From positions 24,180,001 through 24,244,000 of the forward strand of contig NW_027266275.1 in NCBI RefSeq assembly GCF_022045235.1: 64,000 nucleotides of DNA, read 5' to 3'. The notes under the pieces were generated by a model, which had not been told where the DNA came from, searched no databases, and saw only the letters and a list, made by a program, of their open reading frames with translations. This document shows, one piece after another, positions 7,887 through 56,214 of this stretch (position 1 is its first letter; each line of letters opens with the position of its first letter). The position numbers and the translations under genes were made by a program. The DNA comes from Haliotis cracherodii. Taxonomy: Eukaryota.

Positions 7887-8523
7887 GTGAGTATCCTCAT
7901 CAGTTGGGGTAAGTGATTCATTCACGTGTAACTATTCCACATATCACTTCAATCAAAGTCTACAGAGTCATGACACGGTTGAATTGTAACATGTCCCAAG
8001 CGCTCTAAACTCAACGGATCTCGAGGGGTATATAGTGTGATGTACCCCGTGCGTTAGCCCATGTACCCCGATCCGTTAGGCGAGGGTACAAAGTCTCACA
8101 CACAGGGCACATCACATCATATGCCCCGACTGATCGGTCGACAACGAATTTTTCTCCCCAACATTCATTCAAACAGGTCCGGAATATAATTTTGTTCCCA
8201 GTTTCTCCGAGTAAGCAAAACCCGTGTCAGACGAAACGAGTTACTTCCCTTTACCCATTGCATTCGGATAAACATCGGTTCATTTCACCTGTGGGTTTCA
8301 AAAAAAGGGAAACTTCTACGACCTACATCGAACTGACGCACCTTGATATAACTGCAATAATGTTGCTTCCTCACTCGCTACTCTTTTAATGTGGACTTAA
8401 AGTAAAGTCTAACTTTTAAAGTCAACATGTAACCCCATGGGGGCTGAGATATTACATTTTTGTAGAACAAACTGTAAACGTCCCCGCATGTACTGACCGC
8501 TTACCACTTATCTGATTCATCAG

Positions 8524-9219
8524 AGTAGCAGCCCTGTCAGCCTGACTACTGAGAGCAGTACCGACCTAGACGATCAACAGATGGAGGATACAGTGCTAGT
8601 AGGAGCTGAGGATACAGTGAATGTACAGTATTCCTGGAAGCGGGTGACCAAACCACAGGCTACATTGTTGCATGCCCTCAACATACGCGTGAAGGGGGGA
8701 TTCGTGTACGAGGCGAGAGAGTCACGGCTGACTGACAATGAGGATGAACTGAACGTTGAAGAAGGAGACGTGTTAGAAATGTTACACGATGAACCCACTC
8801 ATGGTAATATGTACAAGTGTAAAAATGCTCAAGGACATGTTGGTTTTGTGCCTAATTCGCTGATGTCGCCATCTTTCTATTTGCTCCCCTCTCAAATTGT
8901 AAAACAGTTCAAACAAACAATATCAAATTCTGAAAATGAAATGTTCAGAAAGGAACTTGAACGACTTGGAATTTCCTACTTCGTTGCCACCGGGGAAAAT
9001 CGGGGGGATGCTGTGTACTTATCTGTCAAAAGGAAGGATGTTTTGGTACAAGTAGCAACAAGAAACGCAGGTCGAGCTGTTTTCAAAAACTGTAGAAATG
9101 AAACAGGTTACCTACCCATTTCGCTCACTGAATACGTAAATGTCGAAAAACCCTACTTAGGGTTAGGAATCTCGGCTCTGTTCAACATGGGAAGGGAGAG
9201 TTTTGAATCAGAGGCGTAA
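8524..9219 (+). CDS. TIR-SH3-SH3 protein, last exon (two SH3-like domains)
   Basis: Acceptor gattcatcag, phase 0, in frame with ORF 8581-9219. SH3-1 about 8701-8871 (DELNVEEGDVLE...GHVGFVPNSL). SH3-2 about 8977-9138 (LSVKRKDVL...ETGYLPISL). The joined CDS is 1374 nt, 457 aa. Confidence 0.8.
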   Translation, partial: SSSPVSLTTESSTDLDDQQMEDTVLVGAEDTVNVQYSWKRVTKPQATLLHALNIRVKGGFVYEARESRLTDNEDELNVEEGDVLEMLHDEPTHGNMYKCKNAQGHVGFVPNSLMSPSFYLLPSQIVKQFKQTISNSENEMFRKELERLGISYFVATGENRGDAVYLSVKRKDVLVQVATRNAGRAVFKNCRNETGYLPISLTEYVNVEKPYLGLGISALFNMGRESFESEA

Positions 9220-10955: not shown

Positions 10956-11066
10956 TAATCCCAGCTTTCCACTTGTCTCACCAACCCCAGCCTTCCAGCA
11001 AAAAAATAAATCTCTAGGGTTCAGGCACCACACATCTCAACTCACCCAAACCAAACACCCCAAAAC

Positions 11067-12708
11067 ATGACAGACACACGCATCATCTCACACGCAGACA
11101 CCCCAGATCCTGACTTACCCACACCCGCGGAAGCGCACAACACCTCCGGGAGGACAGTCGAAAACATTGTTCCGGACGAGTATGGCTCAGACATGGAACA
11201 TACCACCCCCACCAAACCAGCCAACTCACCTCCACAATACACAAACCCCAAAAAACGTAAGCTCGACTCATCCACTCCACCACCTTCTCCCACACCCACC
11301 CCGGCTTCCTTCATCACCACCTTCGCGCTATACTTCTTCGCCGCAGGCTCAGCATCAATCCTAACTAAACAACTCTCAGCAGACAGGATAGGTTTATGGT
11401 TTAAACGCGAAAAAATCCATTACAGCAACATCAAAAAAGCAAATAAAGGTTACCAAATAATATTCCCAAATCAAGATTCATTCAATGCAGCTAAAAAAAT
11501 AGTACAAATTTTTCACGTAACCGTAACAAAACAAATTCCAAATTGGCAGCAATTCACCCGAGGGGTAATAAGAGTAAACCCTAGAGAAACAGCCGAAGAC
11601 CTAGAACTCTACACCCAAGAAGCAAACACAAATCAATACCCTCAACCCCAAATAACAAGCACCCGCAGGATAACAACAAACAGAAACGGCAAAACGGTCC
11701 CTACATCAATCGTTATTGTAAACTTCAAAAAAACGGCTAAATTTCCTGAAGCCCCTAATCACATCTCTTTCGGTGCCCACACTAAACTAGAAGTTAAACC
11801 ATACATCAAACAGGTCAAACAATGTTCTAACTGCCTTAGATATAACCACACGGCCACCCAATGTACATTCAAAAAAACTAAATGTAAAAAATGCGCCCAA
11901 ACCGATTGCCCAGGTACATGCTCTCCCTGGTGCATCCATTGCAAATGCATAAAACATACATCACTCTCAAACCAGTGTCCGCACAGACATGCCCTAACAC
12001 AACAGGCCAACAAACACATAAACATAGATTCGGCCAAAATCCAAACAAGAAAATATGCACCACCTACATCCAAACCTCTCCTCCCCACACCACACTCAAA
12101 CACCACACACAAACTCTCGGATTCAATCTGGGGCAACCACATAGAAACCGCACCCACCACTTCCACACATCACCTCACACAGCCACCTACCAACTCCCCC
12201 ATAACATCAACACCCGCATGCAAAGCAAACAGCAAAACCACAGACACACAACGACCCTCAGCCAGACACTCTACAGCCCACAAGGCAACAACACTTCCCC
12301 ACAAGCAACCACAAAAAAAAAAACTCAAACACTGAGGAAACCACAGCTACACCCAACACGCAAGCACAAACTCAACACCCCACACCACAAACACCTCCAC
12401 AGGCCTCCCCAATGAAAACTCAAACAATAAAAACCAACCTAACCGACGAAGACGAGTATTCTTCCACCGAGGAAATAAATGAAATCACTTTCTCAGCCCC
12501 TAAAACCAACAAAAACTTCAGGCGCAAAAATCCTCAATTAACCAGCACTAAAACTCTTAATAACCTCACACTACTCCTAGCCTACATGCATAAGCAAAAC
12601 TCACCAAATGCTAGTATTAAAGCTTTTCACTCAGTAGCACAAAAACTAAAACTCACAACTCTCTCCTTTGAGTTATTTCTCTCCCAACTTAGGGAAGCTA
12701 CCAATTAA
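11067..12708 (+). CDS. LINE ORF1 (gag-like), split by a +1 indel in the A11 run at 12313-12323
   Basis: CSNCLRYNHTATQC knuckle plus two further Cys clusters, and a PKKRK NLS. Removing one A joins ORF 11067-12335 to the frame ending at 12708 (about 546 aa). Confidence 0.8.
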
Positions 12709-12755
12709 ACAAAACCTAAAACTCAAAACAAACTAATAACCTCTCATCCCCCAAA

Positions 12756-15700
12756 ATGGAAGGACTAAATATATTTCAGTGGAACGCCAACGGATTAGCC
12801 TCCCACGGCAAGGAGTTAAAAGCTAAATTCAAACGAGACAAAGGTCCACACATAGTCTGTATACAGGAAACTAAATTCTCTACCAGATCTAAATTCACCC
12901 TACCAAACTATAACTCAATAAGAACTGACCGAGCCAAAACAAACCCAGGTAGAGCCGGAGGCGGCCTAATCATATACGTCAGGGAAGATTTAAGCTACAA
13001 AGAACTAAAAATAAACACACCGAACCTAGAAGCAAACGGTATCCAAATAACAAATAACAACCAAAAAATTAATATCATAAATATATACCACTGGGTAGAA
13101 AAACAGGTCAAACCTGAGGATTTAAACACCCTCCTCCAAATAGGCAATAAATCTACAATCTTCCTAGGAGACTTTAATGCCCACCACCCTACCTGGGGTA
13201 TAGAAGATAAAATAGATAAACACGGAAAACTCATCTCAGAATGGATAGAACAAAATGACCTAATACTACTAAATAACAACCAACCTACTAGATACGACAA
13301 AATACACCACAAAATGTCGGCTATCGACTTAACCATATGCACCCCAGATTTAGCCCAAAGTATTCAATGGGAAGTACACGGGGTACCACTAGGTAGTGAC
13401 CACTTCCCCATAAATATAACTATAGGAGACGTAAACATCCCATCACCAGCCCCAAACCAGGAACCTAAATTCCACTACAACAAAGCCGACTGGGACAAAT
13501 TTCAGGACATTTGCAACCAGGCTAACCTAGCTGACCTAGAAAGTAACGACCCCGAAATCTACTGTAAAAACCTCACTGACTATATAATAAACGCAGCTAA
13601 AAACTCCATTCCTTTCAAAACAACCAGCATAGGCAAACCCTCGGTTCCTTGGTGGAACGAGGAGATAGAACAAACGAGGCGTAAACGCAAATCCGCATTC
13701 AATAAAGCCAAACGTGACTTCAAACACCTAAAGATAGCACATGAACTAAATCACAAAGTACAAAGCTTAGTTAAAACAGCTAAAACAAGAGACTGGAAAA
13801 AATTTTGCGAAGAAATTAACCATCATACAGACGCCAGAACAGTTTGGCGCAAAATCCACGCCATTAGGGGCATTAAACGTCATAAAAAAACTCCCAACGT
13901 AAACAATTCAACAAACCCCACTGAAAAAGCTAATAACCTAGCAAATCACTTCTCGGCCGTCAGTAGCAATAGCAACTTCAACCAAAAATTCCAGGAACAA
14001 CTAAAAGCAGAAACCAAATTTACCAAAGAGCCAAAAGATAATAACCTAGAAATTAATCTCCATTTCACAATGGAAGAACTACTCCACGTCCTACAAAATA
14101 GGAAAAAGGGCACAGCCCCAGGCTTAGACCTTACTTCATACCAGATAATTAAACAACTACCACCCAAACTACTCCAAACTCTTCTGAAACTCTATAACCT
14201 CATATATCTAAACGGACAGGTCCCATCACCTTGGAAACAAGCCCTGGTCATACCAATCCCCAAACCCAATAAACCAGCTGACCAGGCTAATTCATACAGA
14301 CCAATCTCCCTAACTTCTAACTTATGCAAAGTAATGGAATCAATGGCCAAAAACAGGTTACAACACTACTTAGAACAAAACAACATAATAAATCCAGACC
14401 AAAGCGGTTTCACTCCTGGACGCTCAACCTTAGATAACCTCGCCCGACTAGAGCAGGACATTAAAACAGGCCAACTTAACAAACAATATACTACAGGCAT
14501 CTTTCTAGACTTCTCCAAAGCATTCGACATGGTTTGGCATAACGGGCTAATACAAAAACTTAAAAAAATAGGACTTAAAGGTCAAATAATTAACTACATC
14601 CAAAGTTTCCTAACAAACCGCAAAATCACCGTGGGCATAGACCAAACGCTATCGGACCAATGTCCCCTAGAAAATGGCACTCCCCAGGGCAGCATCCTAA
14701 GCCCAACACTCTTCAATATTATGATTAACGATTTATTCGAGGGACTATCCCCCAAAGTAAACACATCAAAATTCGCGGATGATGGAGCCCTCTGGATCCG
14801 CACTAAAAGCATTAAAATGGCCCAAAACTTACTACAAAAATCTCTAAATAAAATACAAAAATGGGCTGACAAATGGGGCTTCTCCCTAAACTCAGAAAAA
14901 ACCACAGGAATAGTATTTAAACACAAAAATATGCAACCCGCCACCCTAAACCTCCAACTAAACAACAAACCAATCAAATTCCAAAAACAAACCAAATTCT
15001 TAGGATTAATCTTCGATGAACATCTCACCTGGGATGCTCACATTAAAAACCTTGTAACCAGATGCAGCAAAGACCTAAACACGTTAAGATGCCTAACCGG
15101 CTCCAACTGGGGGGCCTCTAAAAACACCCTCCTCTCACTCTATATATCACTAATTAGGTCCAAACTAGACTATGGCAGTGCCATTTACGACACCTTAAAC
15201 AACTCTCTCATTAAAAAACTAGACTCAATCCAGTATCAGGCCCTAAAACTAATCACACGAACTCAACATGGCACCTCTTCCACCTCACTCCAGGCCTTAA
15301 CAGGAGAAATGCCACTTAAACTACGTAGGGAACAACTTACCCTAAACTTCTGGGCTGCGTCCCAATCAAACCCACTAATCGAAAACTTAATAAAACAAAA
15401 TATTAGCCCTAGAAACCAAGCCCTAGCCCGGAAACATCCACTACTTACTCCAATTTCCCAAAGAATAACCAATTACCTAAACGAACACAAAATAAATAAT
15501 CTTAAACAAAACAATAAATCATCCAATATCTTCACTCCAAAACTTAAAATACCAAAAATAGACACAACACTAGCCGATACACTAAATAAACAGACCGATC
15601 CTAACATCGCTAAAACCACCACACTAGCATACATACATGAACATTGGCCAAATTGGTGTCACATATACACAGACGGATCCTCAGATCCGATCTCAAAACA

Positions 15701-16514
15701 CACAGGTTTCGGAGTCCACATCGCACAACCAACCAAAGACACACAATCTTACCGACTCCCAAACAACCAATCCATATTCACGGCCGAACTAATGGGCATG
15801 GCCTCAGCACTACACAATCAGCAATCTAAAACACACCAAAAAATCCTCATCCTAACCGACTCTCTCAGTGGACTACAAGCCCTCAAAAATAAAAACACTA
15901 AAAACCGCCCCAAACTAATAAATCAAATACTCAATAGCTCAAACAACTTAACTAAGGTAGGTAAACAAATAGAGTTCATTTGGATCCCCGCCCACGTAGG
16001 AATCTTTGGAAATGAAAAGGCAGATAAAGCAGCAAAATTATCCCTTAAACTCCCAGAAATAAGCTTAAACTTACCCAGCTCAAAATCAGAAATCAAAAGT
16101 GTCACTAAACAAAAAATTAACAAAAAATGGCAAAATATATACCAAAACTCAAATAGCCAAATCAGGAAAGTACTCAAAAAAAACCTAAATAAACCCAAAA
16201 TACTACACCCATCCAAAAAAATCGACAGAATAATTACCAAACTACAAACAGGCCACACCAAACTAAATAATCACCGTAAAATAGCTAAACTACACACAAC
16301 AGGAAACTGCCCACATTGCAAACAACAAGAAACACCAGAACACGTACTCATTCACTGCACACACTACCAAACACACCGAACAACACTACAGACCACCCTA
16401 AATCTTAAAACCGGACTTACACTAGAATCAATCCTAAATCCACAAAATAAATTAGAAAAATTCAAAGCCTTAGGCATATACCTAATAAAAACAGGACTAA
16501 TTAGTCGCATTTAA
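12756..16514 (+). CDS. LINE ORF2 polyprotein: APE endonuclease, reverse transcriptase, RNase H, CCHC
   Basis: QWNANG/IQET/GDFNAHH/SDH (APE); PQGSILSP and FADD (RT); YTDGS, AEL, LTDS, WIPAHVGIFGNEKAD (RNase H); CPHC...EHVLIHC. Uninterrupted 1252 aa. Confidence 0.96.
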   Translation: MEGLNIFQWNANGLASHGKELKAKFKRDKGPHIVCIQETKFSTRSKFTLPNYNSIRTDRAKTNPGRAGGGLIIYVREDLSYKELKINTPNLEANGIQITNNNQKINIINIYHWVEKQVKPEDLNTLLQIGNKSTIFLGDFNAHHPTWGIEDKIDKHGKLISEWIEQNDLILLNNNQPTRYDKIHHKMSAIDLTICTPDLAQSIQWEVHGVPLGSDHFPINITIGDVNIPSPAPNQEPKFHYNKADWDKFQDICNQANLADLESNDPEIYCKNLTDYIINAAKNSIPFKTTSIGKPSVPWWNEEIEQTRRKRKSAFNKAKRDFKHLKIAHELNHKVQSLVKTAKTRDWKKFCEEINHHTDARTVWRKIHAIRGIKRHKKTPNVNNSTNPTEKANNLANHFSAVSSNSNFNQKFQEQLKAETKFTKEPKDNNLEINLHFTMEELLHVLQNRKKGTAPGLDLTSYQIIKQLPPKLLQTLLKLYNLIYLNGQVPSPWKQALVIPIPKPNKPADQANSYRPISLTSNLCKVMESMAKNRLQHYLEQNNIINPDQSGFTPGRSTLDNLARLEQDIKTGQLNKQYTTGIFLDFSKAFDMVWHNGLIQKLKKIGLKGQIINYIQSFLTNRKITVGIDQTLSDQCPLENGTPQGSILSPTLFNIMINDLFEGLSPKVNTSKFADDGALWIRTKSIKMAQNLLQKSLNKIQKWADKWGFSLNSEKTTGIVFKHKNMQPATLNLQLNNKPIKFQKQTKFLGLIFDEHLTWDAHIKNLVTRCSKDLNTLRCLTGSNWGASKNTLLSLYISLIRSKLDYGSAIYDTLNNSLIKKLDSIQYQALKLITRTQHGTSSTSLQALTGEMPLKLRREQLTLNFWAASQSNPLIENLIKQNISPRNQALARKHPLLTPISQRITNYLNEHKINNLKQNNKSSNIFTPKLKIPKIDTTLADTLNKQTDPNIAKTTTLAYIHEHWPNWCHIYTDGSSDPISKHTGFGVHIAQPTKDTQSYRLPNNQSIFTAELMGMASALHNQQSKTHQKILILTDSLSGLQALKNKNTKNRPKLINQILNSSNNLTKVGKQIEFIWIPAHVGIFGNEKADKAAKLSLKLPEISLNLPSSKSEIKSVTKQKINKKWQNIYQNSNSQIRKVLKKNLNKPKILHPSKKIDRIITKLQTGHTKLNNHRKIAKLHTTGNCPHCKQQETPEHVLIHCTHYQTHRTTLQTTLNLKTGLTLESILNPQNKLEKFKALGIYLIKTGLISRI

Positions 16515-17075: not shown

Positions 17076-17605
17076 TCCAACTTCTAAATGCCTATCAAAG
17101 ACGTTTATGGATGCTGTTTGGCCACACTATCCCTTCATATCTTGAAATGAAAACATGTTAGACCTGGATCTTGTTTGAGCAGTTAAGTATCCAAGTATTA
17201 GGCTTGTATCTACAAGTCATACTCTATCATATACCAAAAGTTAAAAATCCCGTCTAGGCTATTTGTTGAATCTTTGTTTAAGCATGTGTCCTACTTTTAA
17301 TCATGGCGGGTTGCACGGGTGGCCCAGTCGTCTAAGGCGCCGCGATTCGGCGCGCAGGGTTGCGTCCCTTGGGCACGCCAGAAACTTATGATTGTGGGTT
17401 CGAATCCCGGTTCGCCCCGATTGTGTTTCTAGGTTTGTCAGCACCATACCCGAGCTCGTGGGTTTCACCGAAGTGGTAAACGTCTGAGACCTGCATCACT
17501 TTGGACTTTCCTCTCACATTAAGCTGACACGCCGTGATATAACAGTAATACTGTTAAAAGCGGCGTTAAACCCAACTCCCTGACTCACTTTAATCATGGC
17601 TTACA

Positions 17606-18839: not shown

Positions 18840-19011
18840 GGGGCGGTCGGGTAGCCTAGTGGTTAAAGCGTTTGCTCGTCACGCCGAAGACCCGGGTTCG
18901 ATTCCCGACATGGGTACAATGTGTGAAGCCCATTTCTGGTGTCCCCCGCCGTGATATTGCTTGAATATTGCTAAAAGCGGCGTAAAACCAAACTCACTCA
19001 CTCACTCACTC
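18840..19011 (+). mobile_element. SINE family A (tRNA-Asp-like head, (ACTC)n tail)
   Basis: A/B boxes and TSD catawatccacga. Other copies: about 1-143(-), 438-618(+), 3557-3728(-), 5923-6090(-), 40173-40286(-), 48893-49054(+). Confidence 0.88.
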
Positions 19012-19372: not shown

Positions 19373-19525
19373 TGGGTGGGGAAGGCGGCAAAAATAATGA
19401 TACTCTTAGGATGATATTCTGTGAATAGTAATGATGCAAATATCAATGAATTGACCATGTGTTCGCCTTGCCAAGAACTATCTGACCCTTATTTTGTAGG
19501 TCCAAGGAGAGGTTGTGTGATCCTG

Positions 19526-20833
19526 ATGGCCGAAGGTAGAAGGGTTGTGTCCCTGCATGTTCTCGGATCTAAAGGATCGGGCAAATCTCTCTTCATACGA
19601 CAGCTGGCTAATACAAGACACTGCAAGAAGCTCAAACTTGGTAAGAGGTGTTATGTTGTTGAACTGGATCTGGAGACACTTATTGGAGTTCCAGTTCTTG
19701 TAAACATCACGGAGTACAGAGGTGTGAAGTCCAATGGAGCTCTTGCCTTTGCGTACCATAAGGCAGATGCGTGTTTACTGTTCTATGACAGAGAGGAAGC
19801 TGCTAGCTTTGATAGAGCACAAATGGGATATATCTGGTGTCATTATTTCATGATAGGGAATCCAAATACTTTTGTTGTGGGAAACAAATGTGATAGGTTA
19901 GACAGGAACGACGTTCGACTGGAGGCTGTAGATGCATTCATCAACAAGTTCGGACCAGTTAAGGGCCACTTTTCTGTATCAGCTGAAACTGGCTGCAATA
20001 TCAAACCGATGTTGGTTGATGTTCTTCAACAAGTTTTGGAAGAACGTTTTGTAATCAACAGTAGCCCAGCACAGCTAGAAGTGGCCCTTCGGAATAGTGA
20101 TCCCCACTCGGGAGTGCAAATCTATGCAGTTGAAGAAACAGCTGGTTTGTGTGTTATTGTTAACAACGACACTTTTGAAAACTTGCCGTATCGAGACGGG
20201 GCTGTTAAGGACGTAGAGAACATCGAATCCACATTTGGACCACTTGGATTTGATATGAGGTACATTGAGAACAAAGATGTTTCATCACTCATCAGGAGAA
20301 TGCACGATATATCTAAAATGGATCATACAATGAACAGTATGTTTGTCTGTTTCATCATGTCTCATGGATCACGCAACAGTATTCTGGGAGTAGACGGCCT
20401 GACAATCGACCTTGACAGACTAACATCGTTGTTTTCTGCCCAGCAGTGTCCTAGTCTAGCGGGGAAGCCCAAGCTGTTCATAATTCAGGCATGTCAGGGT
20501 TCCATGGTCCAATCACCAGCAAACGCTCATTCAGACTCTGCAGCAATTCCCGAAGTCACTCGAGAGAGACCAACTGTGCCGGAGTTCGGAGACCTTTTAA
20601 TAGCACATTCTACTATTACAGGATTTGTTGCGTATCGTTACCCCGACAGAGGTTCTCCGTTTATATCGACGCTGTGCAACAAAATTCAGAACTTTCCTGA
20701 GAATCACATGGTGGATATTCTGACCATGGTTAACGGGGAGGTTGCTGCTATGAACTTTGGAGGGTCATTTAAACAGATGCCAATGTTCCAGTCACGGCTT
20801 CGAAAGCGCCTGTACCTGAAGAGGTTGTCATGA
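19526..20833 (+). CDS. Ras/Rab-like GTPase domain fused to a caspase-8-like protease (435 aa from ATG 19526)
   Basis: P-loop GSKGSGKS (19565-19588), G4 VVGNKCD, G5 SVSAETG. Caspase GLCVIVNN, SHG (His 20363), GKPKLFIIQACQG (Cys 20492), p10 DLLIAHST...KQMP. Acceptor ttattttgtag at 19499 precedes the ATG. Confidence 0.92.
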   Translation: MAEGRRVVSLHVLGSKGSGKSLFIRQLANTRHCKKLKLGKRCYVVELDLETLIGVPVLVNITEYRGVKSNGALAFAYHKADACLLFYDREEAASFDRAQMGYIWCHYFMIGNPNTFVVGNKCDRLDRNDVRLEAVDAFINKFGPVKGHFSVSAETGCNIKPMLVDVLQQVLEERFVINSSPAQLEVALRNSDPHSGVQIYAVEETAGLCVIVNNDTFENLPYRDGAVKDVENIESTFGPLGFDMRYIENKDVSSLIRRMHDISKMDHTMNSMFVCFIMSHGSRNSILGVDGLTIDLDRLTSLFSAQQCPSLAGKPKLFIIQACQGSMVQSPANAHSDSAAIPEVTRERPTVPEFGDLLIAHSTITGFVAYRYPDRGSPFISTLCNKIQNFPENHMVDILTMVNGEVAAMNFGGSFKQMPMFQSRLRKRLYLKRLS

Positions 20834-23394
20834 GATGTGGCAATGATGATATTGGAAATATATTGCCAAGGCAACAGACACCCATGAATGTCTGTAATAT
20901 GTGAATGATGAAACTTGGTGTGTAGTTGGATACGTGTGTTGTCAAGGGAACATGAAACAATGGCTGAATGTAATCTATGGATAGTGTCCCGCACTTCAGA
21001 CACCGCGAAGAAACATGTACAGTGACAAAAAACACAGGCAGTTATGAGATAAATGTCCAGTTATACGTTTAGTTACTGACACAGGACTTTACAAGAATAC
21101 ATTCAACAGTCAACCGAATACATTTACAAAGATATATATATTTGTATCATGACTGCCTCTATTATTATAAAATCCTGAAATAATAAGGGACATTTGTGTC
21201 CCGCCATTTCCATTCACGACTGCATACTCATAGCGCACCATGAAAACACACTTAAACAGAGAAGTATGCATAAGCTTATCAGATGTGTTTTCAGAGCAGC
21301 TTTAAATGTAGTTAGACATGGAACATCATCTTTGTATGTTCAGAAACTTATTGGTCAGGGATATAGTTGTGCATGAGTAATGTCATTTATCAAACTGCTT
21401 TGAACTTGATATAATTCATGCTTTCAAGTGGAATATTTGCGTAGTTGCTCTTAGTGAGTGACCAGTTAATCTACATCATTAAGTTGATGCACTTAAGCTA
21501 TGCTTGAACAGAAATTGTAAAAGCCAGAAAGATTACTAATAATACTTTGGTTCTGAATAAAAATCACTTTGACGGGTAATATTCTGAACGTATAAACCCA
21601 TATGTTATATCGATATGCCTGGCCCGGTACAAGGATAAGCAGTTTCGGACCCACGGCTCGCTGAAAAGATCAAATCATTATCCCCGCCTCGAGTCTATTA
21701 CAGCTCCCCATAGCATAAAGTACCCCCAACCCCAACCACCCCACCCACCCCACCCCCACATTATTTTACTATTTCATTATTTTGAGGCTTCACACATACT
21801 GTTGGAGGCCAGAAGGGTTCTACTAAAATGTGGAATGTAACACATGTAAACTTTGCTGCCCACCTTAAGTGCAGGTATGAACCTGGGACACTGAGTGCTA
21901 TACTACTGTTGGATTGCTATACATGTTGCAAATCATACAGTGAAAACAGTAGACATATCTTAATTGCTGTCTCACAATTTATATTTTGACATTAAACTGT
22001 ATATATGATAATTGTTTGCCTATGTTTGTTTGTTAGTTTGTTGTTTAACGCCGCACTATTCCAGCTGGATCTATATGACGGCGGTATGTAAGTAATCGTG
22101 TCTTGACCAGACAATCCAGTGTTTGACATCATGAGCATCGATCCATCAATTGGGATACGATGACATGCATCAACCAAGTCAGCCAGCCTGACAACCCGAT
22201 CTCGTTAGTCGGATCTGTGAAGTCTACTCCTCCGACATCAGCATGGATGTCAACTGTGACAGCAGATGAATGAAATGATATTTCACTTTGCAATAAGTAA
22301 AATTACATGGATCAAGGGTCGTAGCTCTGTAAAAAAGTAATTGATGGGACTAAACTTCGACAGACGGAAAGACGGACGGACGGACGGACGAACACTTCGT
22401 GACGGGGGATAATAATGATGACAACAGTGTTAAACACCATTCACTCTTGGACACGAGACGTATTACCATTGGAAACTGTTTTCACGAGGGACAAGTGATC
22501 GTCTGTATGAGACAATCATTCTGAAAGGGATAACTTTTCACGTCAGTGTGGAATGACACGCCATCAAGTCCAAGATTTAGTCCACTACGACAAGCATGAT
22601 ATACAGGGGGGCCTATTCTAAACTGGCCTTCAAAAGGGTTGTTAAAGTGAAAAAAGACTGCACAATCCTGGTGCAGTAAAATCAAAGAGAAAGATTGCGC
22701 CGTATTCAGAATAACGATACAACAGAGATATAGGACAGTCAAGTGTATGTCTGGAAGTGTGGTCGATAGATACATTTGGGATATTTAATTTATCATAACG
22801 TAAGTTACCTCCATATTTGATACCACGATAACGATACCACTTGCATTTAAACAGCATAATAGGGTTAAATACGGGCACAAAGATCATATCCGGTACAAAG
22901 GGCATGTCTTGAAATCCAGTGTTTACCCAACTGGCATGAACATCAGCGAACAGAATCTGGCGACTTACAGTCTCTAGCCTTTGACAGGTGAGGTGAGGTA
23001 AGTGAAGTCAACCGTCAGCGAGCCTGACCAACCGACCCCCTTAGTCGCCTCTTACTGCAATCATGGGTTGCTGAAGACAGGATCTTCACGGGCGGTGTGT
23101 TAATGACAGAGTGGATCTCCGCACCGAACTGAGTAGCTGAGTATGCTTAATGCATACCAACTTACACAATGATGAAAGCAAACGTGGCTGAGAAAGGGAC
23201 ACTAATGTTATTTTCCGACATCATAACACAGAAATTCAGCTTCATGAACGATGGCTTCAAGGCAGACATCCTTCATTCATGTAAGAGTATAAACAGACTA
23301 GATTATCTACCGAAAGAGATTCCATTTAGCGCAAACGGGCAAAGTAGCTGTGCAAATTATGTGAATGGACCACTGAAAATCAGAGATGACACCA

Positions 23395-27858: not shown

Positions 27859-28386
27859 CTAACACGAAAACTTAATATTTGATGTTGTTGAATTATCAAT
27901 TACGAATCTCCCAGCGTTAGGTGTAGCAATACATCGCCCGCTTACAGACAAATTAGCAAATAGCCAATCGGACACATAGCCGTTGGGTTTATAACCTGAT
28001 ATTTCATTCATGAGCTGGCCACTACTTGGCTGTGAACCAACCGACACATCTATAAATCGTACATTGGATGAAGTTCCATTGATCCCTGCCGGCATGGTCC
28101 AGAAAACAAAACGAGGACAAAAACCTTCAAGACGAATGTTTTGAAACACCACATTATTCATGTTGATGACCTTGACGTTTCCAGCCAGATCGAACACTGC
28201 ATTGTTTCTACTAAGCATACCACAGTCGCGGTCGTGGAATGTACACCAGTCCGTGTGAATGACGTCGATGTTGCTGATGCTGACTCTGTGAAGGTCACGT
28301 TCCGTCCACCAGCCTGTTTGGAATACGGCACCATTTTGCATTTGCCAGATGACCACTCTCTGTATCGTCATATCGTTGTTGTACAC
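27859..28386 (-). CDS. GH49-like hydrolase A, exon 2
   Basis: Acceptor ttttccttatag, then VYNNDM...VVIWQMQNGAVFQTGWW...IDVIHTDW. The joined protein is 477 aa. Confidence 0.88.
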   Translation of the reverse strand: MYNNDMTIQRVVIWQMQNGAVFQTGWWTERDLHRVSISNIDVIHTDWCTFHDRDCGMLSRNNAVFDLAGNVKVINMNNVVFQNIRLEGFCPRFVFWTMPAGINGTSSNVRFIDVSVGSQPSSGQLMNEISGYKPNGYVSDWLFANLSVSGRCIATPNAGRFVIDNSTTSNIKFSC

Positions 28387-29357
28387 CTATAAGGAAAACT
28401 AACATTCAAAAAGTCGTTCAAGATATTCAAGGAACCATCGAGCAAGACTGGAATCTCTGAGTAAAAGGTGACTTAGCGACATATGACTCTTGCTTAGAAG
28501 TTGTTTGATCACCTTTACAACATTCAAGGATTCAGTAAAGCTTTCAAAAATGTTTATGGAGGACATTTCCAAATTTGACGCATCAGTGACAAAAATGATG
28601 TCCGATGCAGTTCCCTGTTTTGACTTGTTCCATAATGTTCCCGTGTTTTTCAGGTGAACATCGACTTGCCCGTGCATGTGTTTGTGACGGGTGCCGCAGG
28701 ATACGCTCACATTTTCGCGAACACCTGGTATCATTACTATTTGATAGTGATTCATAAACACATGCTCAGGATATAATGTGAATCGTACAATCGACTCTGT
28801 TTTATGCAGAGATTTCTATTGGATATGGAAAGGGTTGTGTTGCTTTATTTATATGTGCAATGGATAACTAAGTGTACGATGGTTTTGAGTGAGGTCAAAC
28901 TAATCCTAAGAAACCTATTCTTGATTATAGTTAGATTATAATGTTTTTTTTGTTTTTTTTATTGTTTGTTTGTTGTTCAACGCCGCACTTAGCCGCACCG
29001 ACGGCGGTCTGTAAATAATCGAGTCTGAATCAGACTATCCAGTGATTGACATCATGCCCATCAATCCACGCATTTGGGATACGATGACACTCATCAACAA
29101 AGTCAGCGAGTCTGACCACCCGTTCCCGTTTGTCCCCTCTTACGACAAGCATAGTCACCTTTTACAGCAAGCATGGGTTGCTGAAGACCTATTCTACCCA
29201 GATTGTAATGTTTGTAGGGGCTATAGTAATGTTTAATCTGTAGCGCTATTAACGAAGCTAAAACATAAATAATACAGATGGAATTGATGAATTGATAATT
29301 TATATGCTATCATATCTGAAACACACAGAGTTGTTAGATGTTAAAGTCTGGCATTAC

Positions 29358-30263
29358 CTTGAGTGAGTCGTCATTGGCCATAATGAACACGTCCTCCACC
29401 AAACCACCAACGCCCATCTCAATACCGTCAGTATTGTAAGGCCAGGCGCCCACCATCTTGACCTGTTTAATGATGTTGTTGGGACTTTGGGCGAATATGA
29501 AAAACTGTTGGGGATCACTTAACGTTATGCCTTCAATTGTGTGATTAGTGCCTTGTGCAGTGTTGATCAACGACCACTGAAATCGCTTGTCATGAAATTT
29601 GTACTTGCGGCCTGAACAGATCCCTCTTCCATGGAACTTGACCTTTGTGTTATCTGTGGTGATGAACCCTCCATCAACGAAAGCTCCAGCACTGATGTAA
29701 ACCTCTTTTATACTCGAGTTCAATCTGACTTGACCGTCAAGATAATGCACACCGACGTCAAAGAACATTACCGAGGGGTCACTCTTAGAAGGAACGTCTC
29801 TCTCCAAAGGTTCTGCAAAGATCAGCAGCTTGTCGACTATGTCGGACTTCCAACTGCCGTAGTCATTATCAAACTCTACAGACATCATAGTAGAATTCCG
29901 AGTCACTGTAAACCTAGCCGTCTTGTTCCCCACCCTACTGCAGGCGTACCCGTAACTTACCGGGCGAACCAGACACTGACTGAAGTCCTTCTGTGTCCTG
30001 ACCTCAACGATTACCGGACCACGACTGAATGCAAAAGACGACCATGACACGGAGCGGTTGGGATGGACGTAGTGGTTCTCGATATGTCTGTGGTTCGAGG
30101 TCGTCTTGTAAGTGAAGGTACCCAATAATGGATCCCCGAGACCTACCAATACCTCATACTTATCTGATGACTCCATGGTCGGAGGTGCAGGGTATATGAC
30201 CAGCTCGGCCATATATCCGCCCATCATTGTCATTACTAGGTAGATGACTGGACACACATCCAT
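29358..30263 (-). CDS. Secreted GH49-like glycoside hydrolase A, exon 1
   Basis: Hydrophobic N-terminus, then VYISAGAFVDGG, GRGICSG, WPYNTDG, FIMANDDSLK. Donor AAG|GTAATG, phase 0. Confidence 0.88.
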
Positions 30264-31599
30264 GCTGTTTTAGTACACTATGGTGAATGGCTACCTGCTA
30301 TGTTATTTATCAAACGTTTACACTCCACGATAGCTGTTATCGTGTTGCTTGATATTGACAGGATCAGATAACGAATATATCATGTCATATATGACGTACA
30401 TTTCAACATCTCAAATGCACTGTGTCTGTTGATAGGGTATGAGACATATGGGTATATCTCGTCGGCCAAAATGTTTCGTGGGCTCCTGGAAGAAAACAAA
30501 ACACAAAGATCACACTGTCAATGTTTGCTAGATTTGAAGACGTGTGTGTTGAAGCAATATCCTTGGATGGTTTGATAATATTCTCATTTATTTAAAGAAA
30601 CGTTGTTCCCTTCGCTGAAACCAAAGAACATCAACACCTTATGAGTTGGTTTAGATTCAACATTTTTAGCTATACTGGAAGGCAAAAGAAAGTCGCCATG
30701 GGCATTATTATACAGAGAATGGTCGATATGCGTTTTGGCGACCTGTTCAGAAATGGTTTCTGGTGGTATGACCTTGGACATTCACACATAGTTCAGTTCG
30801 AGCAAATCATGCAAAATGCACGTGCAAATTGTTGCTTCGCCGACATGCTTTCTCTTGTGTTCACATCCAGCAGACAGTTGAGGCAATAGCTGCCAATGAT
30901 GCTGGCTGATGCACTGCCATTGTATAAACAATGTCATGTTTGACGGCAGCCTGCAAATATTAGAAGTTAGTCCGTATTGTTGATTCCTCGCTTCTATAGT
31001 GGCACTTGTCATCGTATTCCAATTGCGTGGATCGATGCTCACGATATCAATCACTGGATTGTCTGGTCCAGACTCGATTATTTACAGACCGCCGTCATAT
31101 AGCTGGAATATTGCTGAGTGCGGCGTTAAACAACAAACCAACCAACCAACCATAGTCGCACTGACATCCTGATGGAATTACTTTGGGTGACTATTGGGCT
31201 GTCATGGGACCCCTGTCGTGAAACTTGTTCCCGTACAATGCATTGTAAACTCTGTCTTTGTTCTGATCTCGACTGTCACGGGACTGTCTGAGAAAGACGA
31301 TTTCCTGTTAGGTTCAACAGACAACGCATCTTTCACTCTGTTCTTTGACTCTGTAATGTAAGTGAATTGAATACCTTTCAAACCACATTGTGATGCATCG
31401 ACGTGGACGTTATGACCCAGGGACGCCTGATGTGGATGGGTACATATCTAAATCGCAAACGGCTTCGGAAATGTAAATACCTAACATCAAAGCCGTGAAC
31501 GTGTGACAAAGAGCAGCTATAGCATTAGGAGGGATCACACACTGTCATAACTGAAATTGCTCGTTGTCTCAACTGAAAAGTCTCGTTGTCTGCCAAAAC

Positions 31600-33340: not shown

Positions 33341-34453
33341 TTTTACCGGTATGGTGCTGACAAACTAAGGATCAGAAACGTCATGAATCTGCGATTCGGG
33401 TCCACACTGGTATAATTAATACCTTCTGCTGCAGCCACTTTCTACGCGGAAATATATTTCTTCGCAAATTCTACAGGGTACAAGGTTACTGTATTAGTAA
33501 GTGAAGAAAACGTGTGACATGTTCTTTTTATGTTTTGCATGTTTTGTTAGGGTTAATGTAAAAAACAGGTGTGCTTAAGTTGGAAATCGAATCCACGTGC
33601 ACGTTTACGACATGACGAGATAAACGCTTAACGGCTGGGCAAGCTGAATATGTACATTGGTATACTGCAGCGGTCGTTTTGGAGAAGCCGTTCCAGCTGC
33701 GGATGAACTCGAGTGCATGAAGGATAAACGCAAATGAAGATGCATGTGACAGCCTTTAGATGATATTACCACTGAACGTATTCTCCGATTGTCATAATAT
33801 ACATCATATAAGCAACGTCCACCTGGGAGATATCAGCTGTGTCAACTGGGTCAAATTTGTTTGTTTGATGTTTAACGCCTCACTCAGGAATATCCAGCTT
33901 TATGACGGCGGTCTGACAATCCAGTGATTGACATTATGAGCATCGATCCACGCAATTGGGATATGATGACATACATCAACCAAGTCAACGCGCCTGACAA
34001 CCCGATCCCGTTAGTCGCCTCTTAGGACAAGCATAGTCGCCTTTTACGGCAAGCATGGGTTGCTGAAGACCTATTCTATACCGGATCTTCACGGGTTTTA
34101 TAGGAGATAAAAAAAATCACGAAGGATGGTAACTCATTTGGGACCTGCCCTTTGTGTTAGATATTAACCATGAAACTTTCGTGGAATTCAACATTTGTTA
34201 TCCACGCATTGAAATTCGTTTATTTAGTTTGGGCTAGGCTACCAAGTGGTTGATAACATGAACAACAATTCAACCCAACGGGATATGTTGACACATAAAC
34301 ATCCAGGTCAAACATTGTGACCACTAGATCTTTATTGCATTGGCTCGTGCGACAAGTATGGGTTATGTGGACATATTCTACCGAGCAATCCTCACGAGAA
34401 CTTTTGCAAATATTGCAGTGTGTTTTGATGTTTTAAACGACTTTCCATTAATA

Positions 34454-34991
34454 TCATCCAATGATAGGACTAGTACCGCATACAATGTTGATGTTGTGTG
34501 TCGTATGCGAGTCAACCGAAAAGTGTCCTGCACCTGTGTTACTGACACAGTGGCCGCCACACCGGAGATTGACAAACTACAAGTTCTGGATAGGAGCTCT
34601 TGGTGTGCCTGCTATAATGTTATGCATGCTGCTCGATACGGATTCAACATAGATGTTCTCGAAACGCAGATTGCTAACTTTTCCCACAGCTCCGTTGTAG
34701 AGTTTCCGCTCTACCAGTCTCGGACATTCTCCCTCAATTCGGATGTCCTTGAGAATGGTGTCATCGACGTGAAACTCGTGGGTGTGGCCGGACACGGTGA
34801 AGACAAGCAGCATTAGGCTGAAGATGACAGTTATCTCCCTTGTAAGCGCACCAATCCATATGTATAATGTCCACGTCGGAGACCCGGATGTCATGAACGT
34901 TCCTGGACTTGCACCATCCGAACTGGAAGATGGCTCCGAACTGCATCTGCCACACGACTGTTCGCCTGATAATCAAGCCGGTATGGAACAC
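34454..34991 (-). pseudogene. GH49-like pseudogene (exon 2)
   Basis: Acceptor ttttttcag. Colinear with the paralogs down to PIIG-stop, but has a 1-nt frameshift near 34807 and an in-frame TAG at 34577-34579. No intact exon 1 upstream. Confidence 0.85.
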
Positions 34992-36213
34992 CTGAAAAAA
35001 ATGATATATATGGTAACAAGATGACTTTATCATAATCTAAAGGCAAATACCTAAGGGTTTTTTAATCAGGCACACTCGCCTATTGATAAAATATGTTGTA
35101 GCAGGCTGCTGAAGATCCGGGGTAGAATAGGTCTTGATGAGCCAAGTAGATGGTCAAGGTCGTCTCCAACGTCAGCCTGAAAACAGTTTGTTTATATCTT
35201 AACTCGACAAGGAATTGACTGATAACAATCTTATGATAACAGTAGTAGGTTATGTTGAGGTCATGCAGCATGTGCTGTATTTACATACGTTGCTATATTG
35301 CCCTCAGGAATGTTCTTGAAATACTTGTCATTGAGTTTGGAAGGTCGGATTCACGCTCAATGTCGTACACTCAAAAATGAACAATGTTCATAATAACTCA
35401 ACAAATATATAGAGTTTATTTCAGTCAGATCAAATTTAGTAAATACCTTCCTTAGTGTGGGGAATTGACTCTGCTTGGTTTTAAGAGGCCTTCATTCAAG
35501 ATCAAGGCCACACGGTGATGAAATTAAACCGGACGTGCATATAACGTTCCTATTAATGTAGCTAGCGGTATGGGATTTGCTGTTTTAAAGTCGTCATAGA
35601 ACGTGTGGGATGAATTGAAACGACGTTTTCAACCTCTTCGAAGTCGTGTGATGTTGGCCAAGCTGCAGCAGGCAAATCTGGAATGACGTCCCCGAGGCTT
35701 CCTGAATTCTCTGTTTTGTCCTTATTCGGAGTCATTGCCAGGCAAATGTCTTTGCAAATGGTGGTCACTTTGACTTTGACTTGTTAACTATCCGAAACCT
35801 ACTTCGAAACCTTGGTCGTGCACGTGCACCTGAGTTCACATTCTTATTCCGATATCCTGCTTTTTGAATATTACATATTGATATGACTCAATAATCGATG
35901 TGTTTGTTTATTCATTTCACTTGGGTATCAGTGATGTATGGGTACTTTCTTCCAAAATTAGACCACCCTCACGTACCACGTGACAGTCGAGACAGTAACT
36001 ATATTTGAATAGATAAAGTTCCGTTTTTTCAGACAGATAGTGCAAAGGACCAGATGTTTCTTTTTATCTCTACAGAATGTAGATACAATATGTTTTGAAT
36101 AAGTGAAAAAATGTTATGGTTGCACTGATTAGAAGGGATGGGTCTCATGCGTCACAATCTCTGCAGATTCATATTAAGTTATTAGTGCCACAGTCAGCCG
36201 GTGCCGCCACAGC

Positions 36214-37125
36214 ATGGTCGGTCTCTGTGTTTGGGTGGTTCTCTTCACCCTCGCCAACGAGGCGACGGGAAGCGTCATCATATACCCACACGCCAGTGGT
36301 CCACCAGCTTCCAACAAATTCAAGGTGTATGTGAGTCAGGGTGGAAGAAAACATGACAGTTTCACTTACATTACCACCTCTGACAAACGTTCCCACGAAA
36401 CATCATCTGCACACCCAGGACGATCGATGTCGTTCACGTCGTTTTCCTTTACTGGCGGTGCCGTGACAGTGGAGGTCCACACCCAGCGCGACTTCCACAA
36501 CTGCATCGTCAGACCCAAAAGCTACAACTACCACTGCCGCAGAACAGGAACCAAGGTTGCCCAATTCACCGTGTCCAACACCGAGAAGTGGATGTCCGTA
36601 GAATTTGACTATGACTACGGCAGCAGTAATGGAGGCCCAGACATAACAGACAGGCTCCTTGTGTTCGCAGATCCGCCTGAGACACATAAGCCAAACAAGA
36701 ACGACAACTCTGTTCTGTATTATGACGTAGGGATACACAATCTGCATGGCCCGAAACAATTGGATTCTCACATAAAAGAAGTATATTTAGCACCAGGGGC
36801 GTATGTTCAAGGAGGATTTAAGACCACTGGGAATCAACCAGTGAAGATCTATGGCAGAGGAATACTCTCCACTGCTACATACACGTGGCACGATCCAAGA
36901 TTTCAGTGGGCAATGATCGACATTGATAAGGGACATTCTCACGTACTTGAGGGTATCATCATGGTTGATCCTGTGAAATACTTCTACCGCGGACTGAGCG
37001 ATCACAATACCGTCCGTTATGTAAAGATGGTTGGGTCGTGGGCCTATAATTCCGATGGTATTGGTATTGGTCATGATGGACTGGTCGAGGACTGCTTCAT
37101 CTCGGCAAACGATGATGCACTGAAG
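36214..37125 (+). CDS. Secreted GH49-like glycoside hydrolase B, exon 1
   Basis: Signal peptide MVGLCVWVVLFTLANEATG, then VYLAPGAYVQGG, GRGILS, WAYNSDG, FISANDDALK. Donor AAG|GTTTGT, phase 0. Confidence 0.9.
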
Positions 37126-37384
37126 GTTTGTGAATTTTGTTATGTAGACATTTCTTGGATCTTTGCTTGAGCAGTGAATTAGCATTAGCAATACCGAAAG
37201 GGCGTTGATAGGTGTCTCTCTCACACAATGCAAATCGTGTTCTATTATCAAAATCAAACAATCTCGGGAATATGTGATAGTCTGGAGACTCCGAATTATG
37301 AAGTATTGTGGAAAACTTTTACATGATATTAAATAACTATTTTTTAGCAATGATTGGTGAAGTCGATATTTTGACGTATAGATA

Positions 37385-38425
37385 AACAGGGTTTTTCTTG
37401 AAACAGTACTGACGGATCAACATGGGTTTTCTGGGAAAAGTACTAACCAAGTGAAGCTGGTTTTACTGGGAATATAAACGACAGGTGAAAAGGGTTTTAC
37501 TGGGGAAAGATAAACGACAGGTTAAGAGGGTTTTACTGGGAAAGTAAACGACAGGTGAACAAGAATTTTCTGGGAAAATAAACGACAGGTAAAAAAATGT
37601 TTAATGGGAAAATGAACGACGGGTGAAAGGGGTTTTACTGTGAAAAAAACCGACGGGTGAAAGGGGTTTTATTGGGAAAATAAACGACAGGTCAACAGGA
37701 CTTTACTGGGAAAATTAAGGACAAGTCAACACGGTTTTACTGGGAAAATAAACGACATGTGAAGAGGGTTTTACTGGGCAAATAAATGACAGGTGAACAG
37801 GTTTTAAAAAAAATAAACGTCAGGTGAACAGGTTTTTACTGGGAAAATAAACGTCAGGTGAACACGGTTTTACTGGGAAAAGTACTGACGGATGAACAGG
37901 GTTTCACTGAGAAAAGTACTGACGGACGAACATGGTTTTACTGGGATCTGTACTGATGAATAAACATGGTTTACTGGGAACAGTAGCGACAGGTGAACTG
38001 GGTTTTACTGGGAAAATAAATGACAGGTGAACATGGTTTTACTGGGATAATAAACGACAGGTCAAGAGGGGGCGTACTGGGAAAAATAAACGACATGTGA
38101 AGAGGGTTTTACTGGGAAAATAAAGGACAGGTGAACAGGGGTTTTACTGGGAAAATAAACGACAGGTGAACAGGGTTTTAGTAGGAAAATAAAGGACAGG
38201 TGAACAGGGGTTTTACTGGGAAAATAAACGACATGTGAAGATTGTTTTACTGGGAAAATAAACGACAGGTGAAAACGATTTTACTAAGAAAACTACTGAT
38301 GGGTTAACAGGGTTTCATTGGGAAAGGTAATGACGGACAAAAATGGTTTTACTGGGATCGGTACTGGTGAAGAAACGTGGTTTTACTGGGAACAATAGCG
38401 ACAGGTGAAATGGGTTTTACAAGGA
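37385..38425. repeat. About 34-bp minisatellite inside the GH49-B intron
   Basis: Unit gggttttactgggaaaataaacgacaggtgaaca, about 30 diverged copies. Confidence 0.9.
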
Positions 38426-38577
38426 TATCCACTATCAGGACGACCAGGGTTTCCCCGTATCTTTAATTAATTTTCAATTACACCCAACAAATAATCTAGA
38501 ACGTGGGATGGTGCGGCAAATGTTACTCCCATTCGAGAAATTTAGAAACCCAACTGGAGCGTGCTTATTGTATTCAG

Positions 38578-39117
38578 GTATACACAGACAACATGGTGGC
38601 ACGGAGGGTCGTCATCTGGCAGATGCAGAACGGGGCTGTCTTCCAGAACGGATGGTGGAGCGGCAGAGATATGAAGAAAGTCAGGATAAGTGACATCGAC
38701 GTCATTCACACCGACTGGTGCACTTTTAAAGGTTCCAACTGTCACATCAGCGACAACGACGCAGTCTTCGACCTGGCTGGTAACACAAAGCATTTCGCCA
38801 TGAATGATATCGTCTTCACCAACATTAGGGTAGAAGGGACTTGTCCACGTATTGTGTATTGGAAGATGGCCAACGGGGCATCGGGGGCGGCTTCCAACGT
38901 CCACATTATAAACCTGTCCGTGGAATCCCAGCCTGGCCACGACAGTCTCCATAACGAAATAGCAGGGAATTCTGGAGGCAGAGTCACCAACTGGCAGTTC
39001 AACAACTTCAAGATTGGCGGCAAATGCATCTCCGGTGCAGCCCAAGCAGACTTTCATATCGATGCCAACACCACCAGCAATATCCGGTTTAATTGCGGGG
39101 GAGCTATCATTGGATAA
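38578..39117 (+). CDS. GH49-like hydrolase B, exon 2
   Basis: Acceptor tgtattcag, then VYTDNM...VVIWQMQNGAVFQNGWW. The joined protein is 483 aa. Confidence 0.9.
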   Translation, partial: VYTDNMVARRVVIWQMQNGAVFQNGWWSGRDMKKVRISDIDVIHTDWCTFKGSNCHISDNDAVFDLAGNTKHFAMNDIVFTNIRVEGTCPRIVYWKMANGASGAASNVHIINLSVESQPGHDSLHNEIAGNSGGRVTNWQFNNFKIGGKCISGAAQADFHIDANTTSNIRFNCGGAIIG

Positions 39118-55162: not shown

Positions 55163-56214
55163 GTCGATAAGCTTTTACCACGGCTAGTGTCGTTATTAAT
55201 GAAATAAGTCTAATGCAGCTATTCTTCCCCGGATCTTCACGGGTCTCGACACACGTTGTTGATTACGACGATCCTTGGCGCCTCGGTACGACGACAAACT
55301 ATCCTCCTGACTACCAATTCCCACCTTAGTGTGCTCTTTTGATAAACGTGGAGTACCTGGACCTGTTCTCATCCGGCACCCCACGGAGACTCGAACATAC
55401 GGTGCTGAGGTGCCACACTGCTCACAGATCCCTATGGGGTCTCAAGTCTTTCTGAAACCAAACAATGTTATACAGTCAACTTTATTTGATCAGATCGTGG
55501 GTTCGAATCGCGGTTGGATTATGTTTCTTTGTCAGCACCATACCCATGGATTTCACCCAAGTGGTAAACGTCTAAGACCCGCATCATCATTTCGGGTTTT
55601 ATTGATCAGAACAGCGTTATTCATAGAAGTACCCGTTCCGTTGTCTCTGATTTATCCCAAGTTGCATATTATACACCCTGCGACACTCTTAATTCTCGAC
55701 CAGTGATCACCAAAACATATAATATATCCAGGAACTACCCCTCTCTAAATGAATGCAAGCTCACTGTGGTATGCCCACACGCACGTTTATTTATATCTAT
55801 GTAATTTCTCTTTGTTAATGTTCACCTATAAACATGTCAGCCATTTTGTCGTAAAACTGAACATCCAGTTTCTGTGGCGTAAGTGTTGGCGAAGCGTTGA
55901 ATAAATTTAAATTTAAATTGTCCTACCAGGCACAGGTTCTTTACTGCTAGTTTTGTTTTTTGTTTTGTTGTCCGTCACGGAACACCAGACGCGATCATTC
56001 TTTCAAATAAATTATGTTCAGTGCACACGGGTCTTACAACGGAGTATGTTACAAAGGTAGCACACCCTTACAGCACAGCTTATACACGCTATGCAAGAAC
56101 ACACGTGGGTATAGTGCTGTCAGTTGTTACACAGCACTTCTCACCATGTACAGATATGCTCTTGTGTAATGCTGTCCCTACAACAACAGCGGAATGGTCA
56201 GGTTGAAGTAACTG

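Follow-up and report, generated by a model that had tools for sequence, protein, structure and literature searches.

In animals, initiator caspases depend on death-fold prodomains and on separate platforms for their activation, and caspases with long prodomains are activated by induced proximity. A GTPase switch and a caspase-type effector can also lie in one chain, as in the Roc-COR-caspase of Lingula (P0100) and the AP-GTPase and AIG-GTPase immune fusions, and GTPase switches have been described in predicted counter-invader systems (PMC8195603). The term pseudoGTPase denotes a GTPase fold that lacks G motifs, and three classes are distinguished, namely no nucleotide binding (class i), binding without hydrolysis (class ii) and retained hydrolysis (class iii) (PMC5593906; see PMC12490416 and PMC13222923 for further background). 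Another atypical small G protein, kappaB-Ras1, has Arg63 at the position of Ala59, His29 at that of Phe28 and Leu65 at that of Gln61, carries no lipid motif, and binds and hydrolyses GTP (PMC12314375). Here we describe a gene of the abalone Haliotis cracherodii that joins a degenerate G domain to a caspase.

The gene lies in a 64,000-nucleotide stretch of contig NW_027266275.1 (positions 24,180,001 to 24,244,000; hereafter the window, the coordinates of which are used throughout). One open reading frame on the plus strand (19526-20833, ATG at 19526; P0001) encodes a protein of 435 residues, in which Pfam detects Ras at residues 12-171 (within 1-176; E = 6.9e-10) and Peptidase_C14 at residues 207-430 (E = 1.6e-49). 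The coding sequence (19526..20833) is a single exon comprising the G domain (residues 5-172, 19538..20041), a linker of about 30 residues that contains Asp192 and is modelled with low confidence (20042..20131), and the caspase domain (20144..20815), and the exon starts at 19500, directly after a predicted splice acceptor with the polypyrimidine sequence TTTTGTAG (19490..19499, plus strand). Two contigs, X1 record 7 and X4 record 32, end their matches exactly at 19500 and carry 22 and 121 extra letters, respectively; the latter covers 19500-20837, and hence both domains, in one piece. The contig evidence comes from four runs in three studies, and our taking these runs for RNA is a guess. The motifs named in the initial annotation are found where it placed them, and the G-box and caspase motifs all lie in one open frame. 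The fusion of the G domain with the caspase is real, and a gene-model artefact is ruled out by this frame and by the alignment of 13 full-length relatives. Directly upstream of the gene, high-copy tRNA-like short repeats (SINE-like) lie at 17300-17590 and 18840-19010, with very high contig depth.

The caspase shows the features of an initiator-type C14A peptidase, with the His280-Cys323 dyad in SHG (20360..20368) and QACQG (20486..20500), in frame with the G domain, and with the S1 arginines present; its predicted fold matches 4jj7 (VIA search; Z 29.8, rmsd 1.6, 213 residues). It shares QACQG, the xAYR/xSYR specificity loop and a long prodomain with the DED initiator caspases (caspase-8/10 type), but has the G domain where the DEDs would be, and the sources call such proteins caspase-3-like. 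No DED or CARD prodomain was found in the Pfam scan of the window protein. By hand count, 45 of 84 caspase relatives, which had been picked from 150 listed mostly for their long N-termini, carry DED and 2 carry CARD prodomains; a caspase with an AIG1 fragment is also among the relatives, besides the Lingula protein. An initiator-type caspase with DED-bearing relatives suggests that the G domain occupies the place of a proximity-inducing prodomain.

The genome of H. cracherodii bears three further fused copies, an intact and broken tandem pair on C23 and one gene on C13, the latter with an intron within the caspase. In the tandem pair (L034, G000:C23:30915000-30924999), one copy has lost 7 bases and carries an early TGA stop, and its remaining G-domain-only frame is annotated as Rab-5B-like (P0165). 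Relatives filed as 'caspase-3-like' were found in Haliotis rufescens, H. rubra, H. cracherodii and Gigantopelta aegis, and unnamed ENA records close to those of G. aegis also carry the fusion. Together, the fused relatives form four deep clades from abalones and neomphaline snails. Between clades, identity is 12-26% for the G domain and 32-40% for the caspase; the G domains of the window gene and of P0153, its counterpart in H. rufescens, are 96% identical. A search of 1.84 billion representatives returned mostly caspases, and a family profile search found the G domain in 4 of the 150 rows listed, one of them partial. The 13 fused sequences group together in a tree of 54 G domains (support 92/97; the tree carries a long-branch warning). 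This tree, which had only one Rab among its controls, does not point to a parent. In a FastTree analysis of 72 caspase domains, 10 fused sequences fall inside a group of 20 (support 90), the other 10 of which are caspases with different N-termini, four of them from named Haliotis or Gigantopelta. This mixing suggests that the G domain is one among several exchanged prodomains; the fusion itself likely had a single origin, as judged from the sequences compared. A fused paralogue in an unnamed ENA record, P0159, has its catalytic His replaced by Pro (SPG for SHG), and its contigs also hold active-looking copies; it is possible that P0159 is a c-FLIP-like inactive partner. Related snail caspases (L008 at G000:C23:20321045-20324716, P0029, P0116 and P0067) bear an N-terminal region of about 130 residues without a Pfam match.

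To compare the G domain with described small GTPases, we used Ras residue numbering for the G-box positions. The AF2 model of the window protein, built from 13 sequences (mean pLDDT 71), leaves the relative placement of the G domain and caspase undefined (pTM 0.53), and its pLDDT is below 50 at linker residues 177-196 and switch II residues 67-71. Superposing the model on a Rab, as had been proposed for this gene, gives Rab28 as the best fold match of the G domain (Z 19.7, rmsd 2.5, 161 residues). Foldseek with the whole model returned caspases only; in the ESM Atlas, the G domain leads to generic Ras-family clusters, and the whole window protein gave no usable match. The P-loop GSKGSGKS (G1, residues 14-21, 19565..19588) contains a Gly-Lys-Ser that is invariant across the fused family, and G4 reads NKCD (residues 120-123, 19883..19894). 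G5 (residues 152-154, 19979..19987) is present too, but its SAE is SAK in H. rufescens and in both H. rubra relatives, a qualification to the initial description of G5 as canonical. In HMMER alignments to Rab2B, Ypt7 and RabF2b, EYRG falls on the DTAG of G3, and Lys, Leu or Gly occupies the G2 position in either register, which bears out the earlier reading of KLKLGKRC (residues 35-42, 19628..19651) as devoid of the G2 Thr and of EYRGV (residues 63-67, 19712..19726) as the G3 counterpart; Glu63 stands for Asp57, Arg65 for Ala59, Gly66 corresponds to Gly60, and Val67 stands for Gln61. The switch I region (residues 30-43, 19613..19654) is basic, with His32 at the position of Phe28 and a semi-conserved Cys42 (Cys in 6 of 8 divergent representatives). 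Measured against canonical Ras-superfamily GTPases, the protein has the fold, G1 GxxxxGK[ST], G4 NKxD and G5, and lacks the Thr35 of G2 and the DxxG plus Gln61 of G3. There is no CAAX box either, as had been noted, but nothing can be read from this, since the G domain stands at the N terminus and the caspase forms the end of the chain.

The best PDB sequence matches are Rabs for the window domain (E = 6e-7) and the C13 domain (E = 1e-10), whereas the C23 G domain matched Rab5, K-Ras and RhoG about equally. By these best matches (Rabs for two of the three clades tested), the window G domain appears Rab-like rather than Ras/Rho-like. Its likeness to the Rab family (Rab7/Ypt7, Rab1, Rab2, Rab5, Rab28) lies in the best sequence and fold matches; unlike Rabs, it has neither Thr35 nor DxxGQ nor a C-terminal prenylation tail, and no single Rab parent emerges. 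Profile matches of the fused domain include EhRabX3, Miro and Gem.

To see which of these changes are peculiar to the fusion, we compared 16 fused sequences (near-copies included, as well as P0165, which the broken copy encodes in truncated form) with 41 Ras-like domains that stand alone in the H. cracherodii genome. The control set favours intronless genes; its loci come from the 150 that were scored among 456 Pfam candidates, and the 41 remained from 57 loci after the removal of 1 without a profile hit, 3 duplicates and 12 without a matching G1 (mostly partial exons). Lys16 and Ser/Thr17 are present in all members of both sets (the latter being Ser in all 16 fused sequences). Thr35 occurs in none of the fused but in 30 of the 41 stand-alone domains; within two columns of it, a Thr lies in 31 of the 41 but not in the window protein or any other of the 16. 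At position 57, all fused sequences have Glu and none has Asp, whereas the stand-alone domains have Asp in 39 and Glu in 2 of 41. Arg at position 59 is found in 14 of 16 fused (His in P0028 and Ser in P0157) and 0 of 41 stand-alone domains; Gly60 in 15/16 and 31/41; Gln61 in 0/16 and 3/41; Asn116 in 16/16 and 33/41; and Asp119 in 10/16 and 41/41. Lack of Gln61 is thus the usual state in abalone and lack of Thr35 is not rare; it is the fixed E-x-R-G that marks the fused family. The initial annotation of a pseudo-GTPase with lost switch motifs stands insofar as the window domain is a pseudoGTPase by the sequence definition of Stiegler and Boggon (PMC5593906), but its G3 is a conserved replacement and not a mere loss. 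Among the controls, the stand-alone L097 and L098 have Glu for Asp57. Intronless Ras-like genes are strongly expanded on C4, C12, C14, C15, C20, C23, C24 and C78 of G000 (at least 150 Pfam Ras matches scored), and most of them lack Gln61.

The census also shows how the ends of the nucleotide site differ. In the neomphaline-type clade (6 of 16), the Lys and Asp of G4 and the whole of G5 are gone (NIRS, RVN/RVS), while GKS and E-x-x-G are kept, which suggests that the phosphate end is more conserved than the base end. In the C13 clade, G4 reads NRAD and the P-loop is shortened. These changes suggest that guanine binding is not required family-wide, a point against the nucleotide-binding reading given below. 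The net charge of switch I is +6 in the window protein (residues 27-45) and +1 to +6 in the fused set, compared with -3 in three canonical Ras/Rap-like controls; it is basic too in five stand-alone C4 genes. In the C4 cluster (L100-L104), switch I is rich in lysine, and Thr35 and Gly60 are both missing. Two fused clades have Met-Gly starts (MGGKPS, MGA; P0028, P0155, P0156, P0042, P0157 and P0159), which the window protein lacks; read against the N-myristoylation consensus, these starts could stand in for a CAAX box.

With moderate confidence, we read the fused domain as a Rab-like, probably nucleotide-binding prodomain with a fixed E-x-R-G, which likely gates or recruits the caspase. The domain likely keeps GTP and Mg binding through its intact P-loop, G4 and G5. 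Glu63, which is longer than Asp, may make up for the Mg ligand that went with Thr35, and the gamma-phosphate may be held by Arg65 and Gly66; switch II would then be the sole nucleotide sensor, the usual GAP and effector cycling through switch I being gone. The nucleotide-loaded domain would either hold the caspase off or bring it to a membrane or a partner, where proximity would activate it, and caspase biology itself suggests that a long prodomain on a QACQG caspase would act through induced proximity. The phosphate-end residues are fixed even though the clades share as little as 12-26% of their G-domain residues, the fold is intact and the domain is under purifying selection (see below), all of which is consistent with a nucleotide-loaded prodomain, although the conserved Gly, Lys, Ser, Glu and Asn could be structural instead. 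The example of kappaB-Ras1, which binds GTP with several of the same substitutions, also favours this reading, but that protein keeps the equivalents of Thr35 and Asp57. As a pseudoGTPase, the window domain most likely belongs to class ii or iii. The members of these classes Rnd, RGK, the AGAP G-like domain and EhRabX3 share with it a Ras fold, degraded G2 and G3 and kept phosphate binding (PMC5593906); none of them is fused to a protease, and we saw no E-x-R-G in their description. We offer as a tentative and rather improbable extension that Glu63 and Arg65 together replace Thr35 and Gln61, so that the domain reads the phosphate state of its nucleotide and gates the caspase in cis; activation of the caspase by a nucleotide signal tied to metabolism or infection, or by an exchange factor of a pathogen, would then need neither an apoptosome nor a death-fold adaptor, and the clade lacking G4 and G5 would possibly use a non-guanine nucleotide.

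In an alternative that we judge unlikely, the domain is an active atypical NTPase that cycles with Arg65 as its own arginine finger, and it may dimerise on nucleotide and thereby pair the caspases. The Arg stands in 14 of 16 sequences beside an invariant Glu and a near-invariant Gly, and hydrolysis is compatible with degenerate G motifs, as reported for the class iii RGK proteins (PMC5593906) and for kappaB-Ras (PMC12314375). Since kappaB-Ras hydrolyses GTP and 38 of the 41 stand-alone genes lack Gln61, the earlier suggestion that binding without cycling results from the loss of Gln61 and CAAX does not follow. The kappaB-Ras proteins (NKIRAS) resemble the fused domain in the Arg at Ala59, the His at Phe28 (window protein), a hydrophobic residue for Gln61 and the absence of a lipidation motif, but they keep Thr38 (G2) and Asp61 (G3), both missing from the fused family, and stand alone (PMC12314375). 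None of the fused-domain queries tried lists kappaB-Ras in its best 60 PDB rows, so the likeness may be convergent, and we did not adopt descent from kappaB-Ras, of which these rows give no sign. Against an arginine finger, the R63A change of kappaB-Ras2 lowers hydrolysis only slightly (PMC12314375), and the Arg itself is exchanged in P0028 and P0157. The Roc-COR-caspase of Lingula offers a precedent for a GTPase paired with a caspase, but it has a canonical DFGGQ at G3 and a COR domain, and the snail family has neither; no COR or other dimerisation domain was found in the Pfam scan. Membership of the Roco family was likewise rejected, as a linker of about 30 residues leads straight into the caspase.

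Distinctly unlikely is a nucleotide-free scaffold, that is, a class i pseudoGTPase that would retain its fold solely to bind proteins as a prodomain. The persistence of the fusion in the neomphaline clade without G4 and G5 would fit such a role, and AAGAB and p190 pG1 are scaffolds of this kind (PMC12490416, PMC5593906). On the other hand, the window protein retains G1, G4 and G5 and the P-loop Lys-Ser is present in all 16 sequences, whereas p190 pG1 is degraded in all five motifs (PMC5593906).

The C23 copies allow selection on the G domain to be estimated. Over 156 codons, pN is 0.22 and pS is 0.74 (P = 8e-22); dS is saturated, so that only the inequality is to be trusted, and the comparison concerns one paralogue pair with one member now broken. 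The G domain is thus under purifying selection, and neutrality, which the initial annotation had named as an outcome that would count against its proposal, is excluded. The block with the P-loop and switch I has pN of 0.15, and the unconverted part of the caspase has pN of 0.21, equal to that of the G domain (P = 0.83); the catalytic halves of the two caspases are nearly identical and form a gene-conversion tract.

These data bear on the decoy initially proposed for this gene, in which the domain would bait effectors directed against small GTPases of the host, the caspase being triggered once the domain is modified or cleaved. We consider such a decoy very unlikely, in spite of the sensor-like position of the domain on a death protease, the gene birth, loss and conversion on C23, and the proposal that degenerate NTPase domains are sensors of invaders (PMC8195603). 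At the protein level, the G domain is more divergent than the caspase in four of six close pairs (7/166 vs 2/229, 7/164 vs 1/239, 11/172 vs 2/231 and 24/172 vs 4/231 differences), as a decoy might be, but one pair shows the opposite (3/159 vs 16/231) and another shows no contrast, and gene conversion of the caspase half may account for the pattern. Similarly, two unnamed tandem copies differ at 4 of 14 switch I and 6 of 17 beta2-beta3 sites, and P0042 and P0159 differ at 4 of 14 switch I and 1 of 18 switch II sites, whereas the window gene and P0153 differ at 0 of 14 and 0 of 18, respectively. Of the effectors named in the proposal, RRSP cuts Tyr32-Asp33 in an acidic switch I that it recognises through arginines (PMC6254334), and VopS AMPylates Thr35 and VopC deamidates Gln61 of Rac1 (PMC7140047). 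All of these residues are missing from the 16 fused sequences, in which switch I is basic, and a bait without the attacked residues would be a poor bait. A decoy should also copy its host target, yet identity between the fused domain and stand-alone abalone G domains reaches at most 38%, in a partial match, and 20-30% where full-length domains are aligned, and a weak, word-based search for stand-alone relatives returned only P0165. It is possible that the domain is bait for some other Rab-directed effector or a bacterial GEF. The proposal called guard/decoy logic rarely shown in animals, but the guarding of GTPases is already known there: the pyrin guard of RhoA and the NLRP1B tripwire respond to effectors by way of the attack on a GTPase or the cleavage of a bait (PMC8888934), but they use separate sensors, and the snail fusion copies no effector site.

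A neutral relic of a chance fusion, to which the long branches between clades and the broken C23 copy might point, is scarcely credible given the pN far below pS and the retention of the domain in four clades and four named species, with 96% identity between the window gene and P0153.

Other features of the window are recorded here in their own right. At least two intron-split GH49-type genes lie at 27862-30269 (minus strand) and 36178-39114 (plus strand), with pieces near 34328-34972; a GH49 N-terminal match has E = 1.2e-6 and an isopullulanase solenoid match E = 2.8e-4 in one copy, and the plus-strand frames, without a Pfam match, are homologous by eye only. GH49 is mainly microbial, and the abalone family was possibly acquired horizontally. 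An apparently intact non-LTR retrotransposon (11010-16514, plus strand) encodes an ORF1 of 441 residues and an ORF2 of 1264 residues with endonuclease, reverse transcriptase and RNase H, and is covered by contigs in all four runs. Exon-sized frames with TIR (1296-2009; E = 4e-10) and SH3 (8497-9216; E = 3e-6) matches lie on the same strand (plus), 10-18 kb upstream of the caspase. A long tandem repeat of units of about 60 bases (53854-55184) has open frames on both strands.

No published description of a Ras/Rab-caspase fusion in snails was found by title or abstract opening, although the domain-architecture supplements of PMC8195603 could list one; GTPase-caspase fusions of other kinds are known, and the Rab-like snail version with E-x-R-G is apparently undescribed. 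A small G domain serving as a prodomain in one chain would be a compact case of direct nucleotide control of a caspase, and the fixed E-x-R-G lets one ask, as in a natural experiment, whether a G domain can do with substitutes for Thr35, Asp57 and Gln61 all at once. For the abalone, these genes, filed only as 'caspase-3-like', are a lineage-specific candidate for cell-death and immune signalling.
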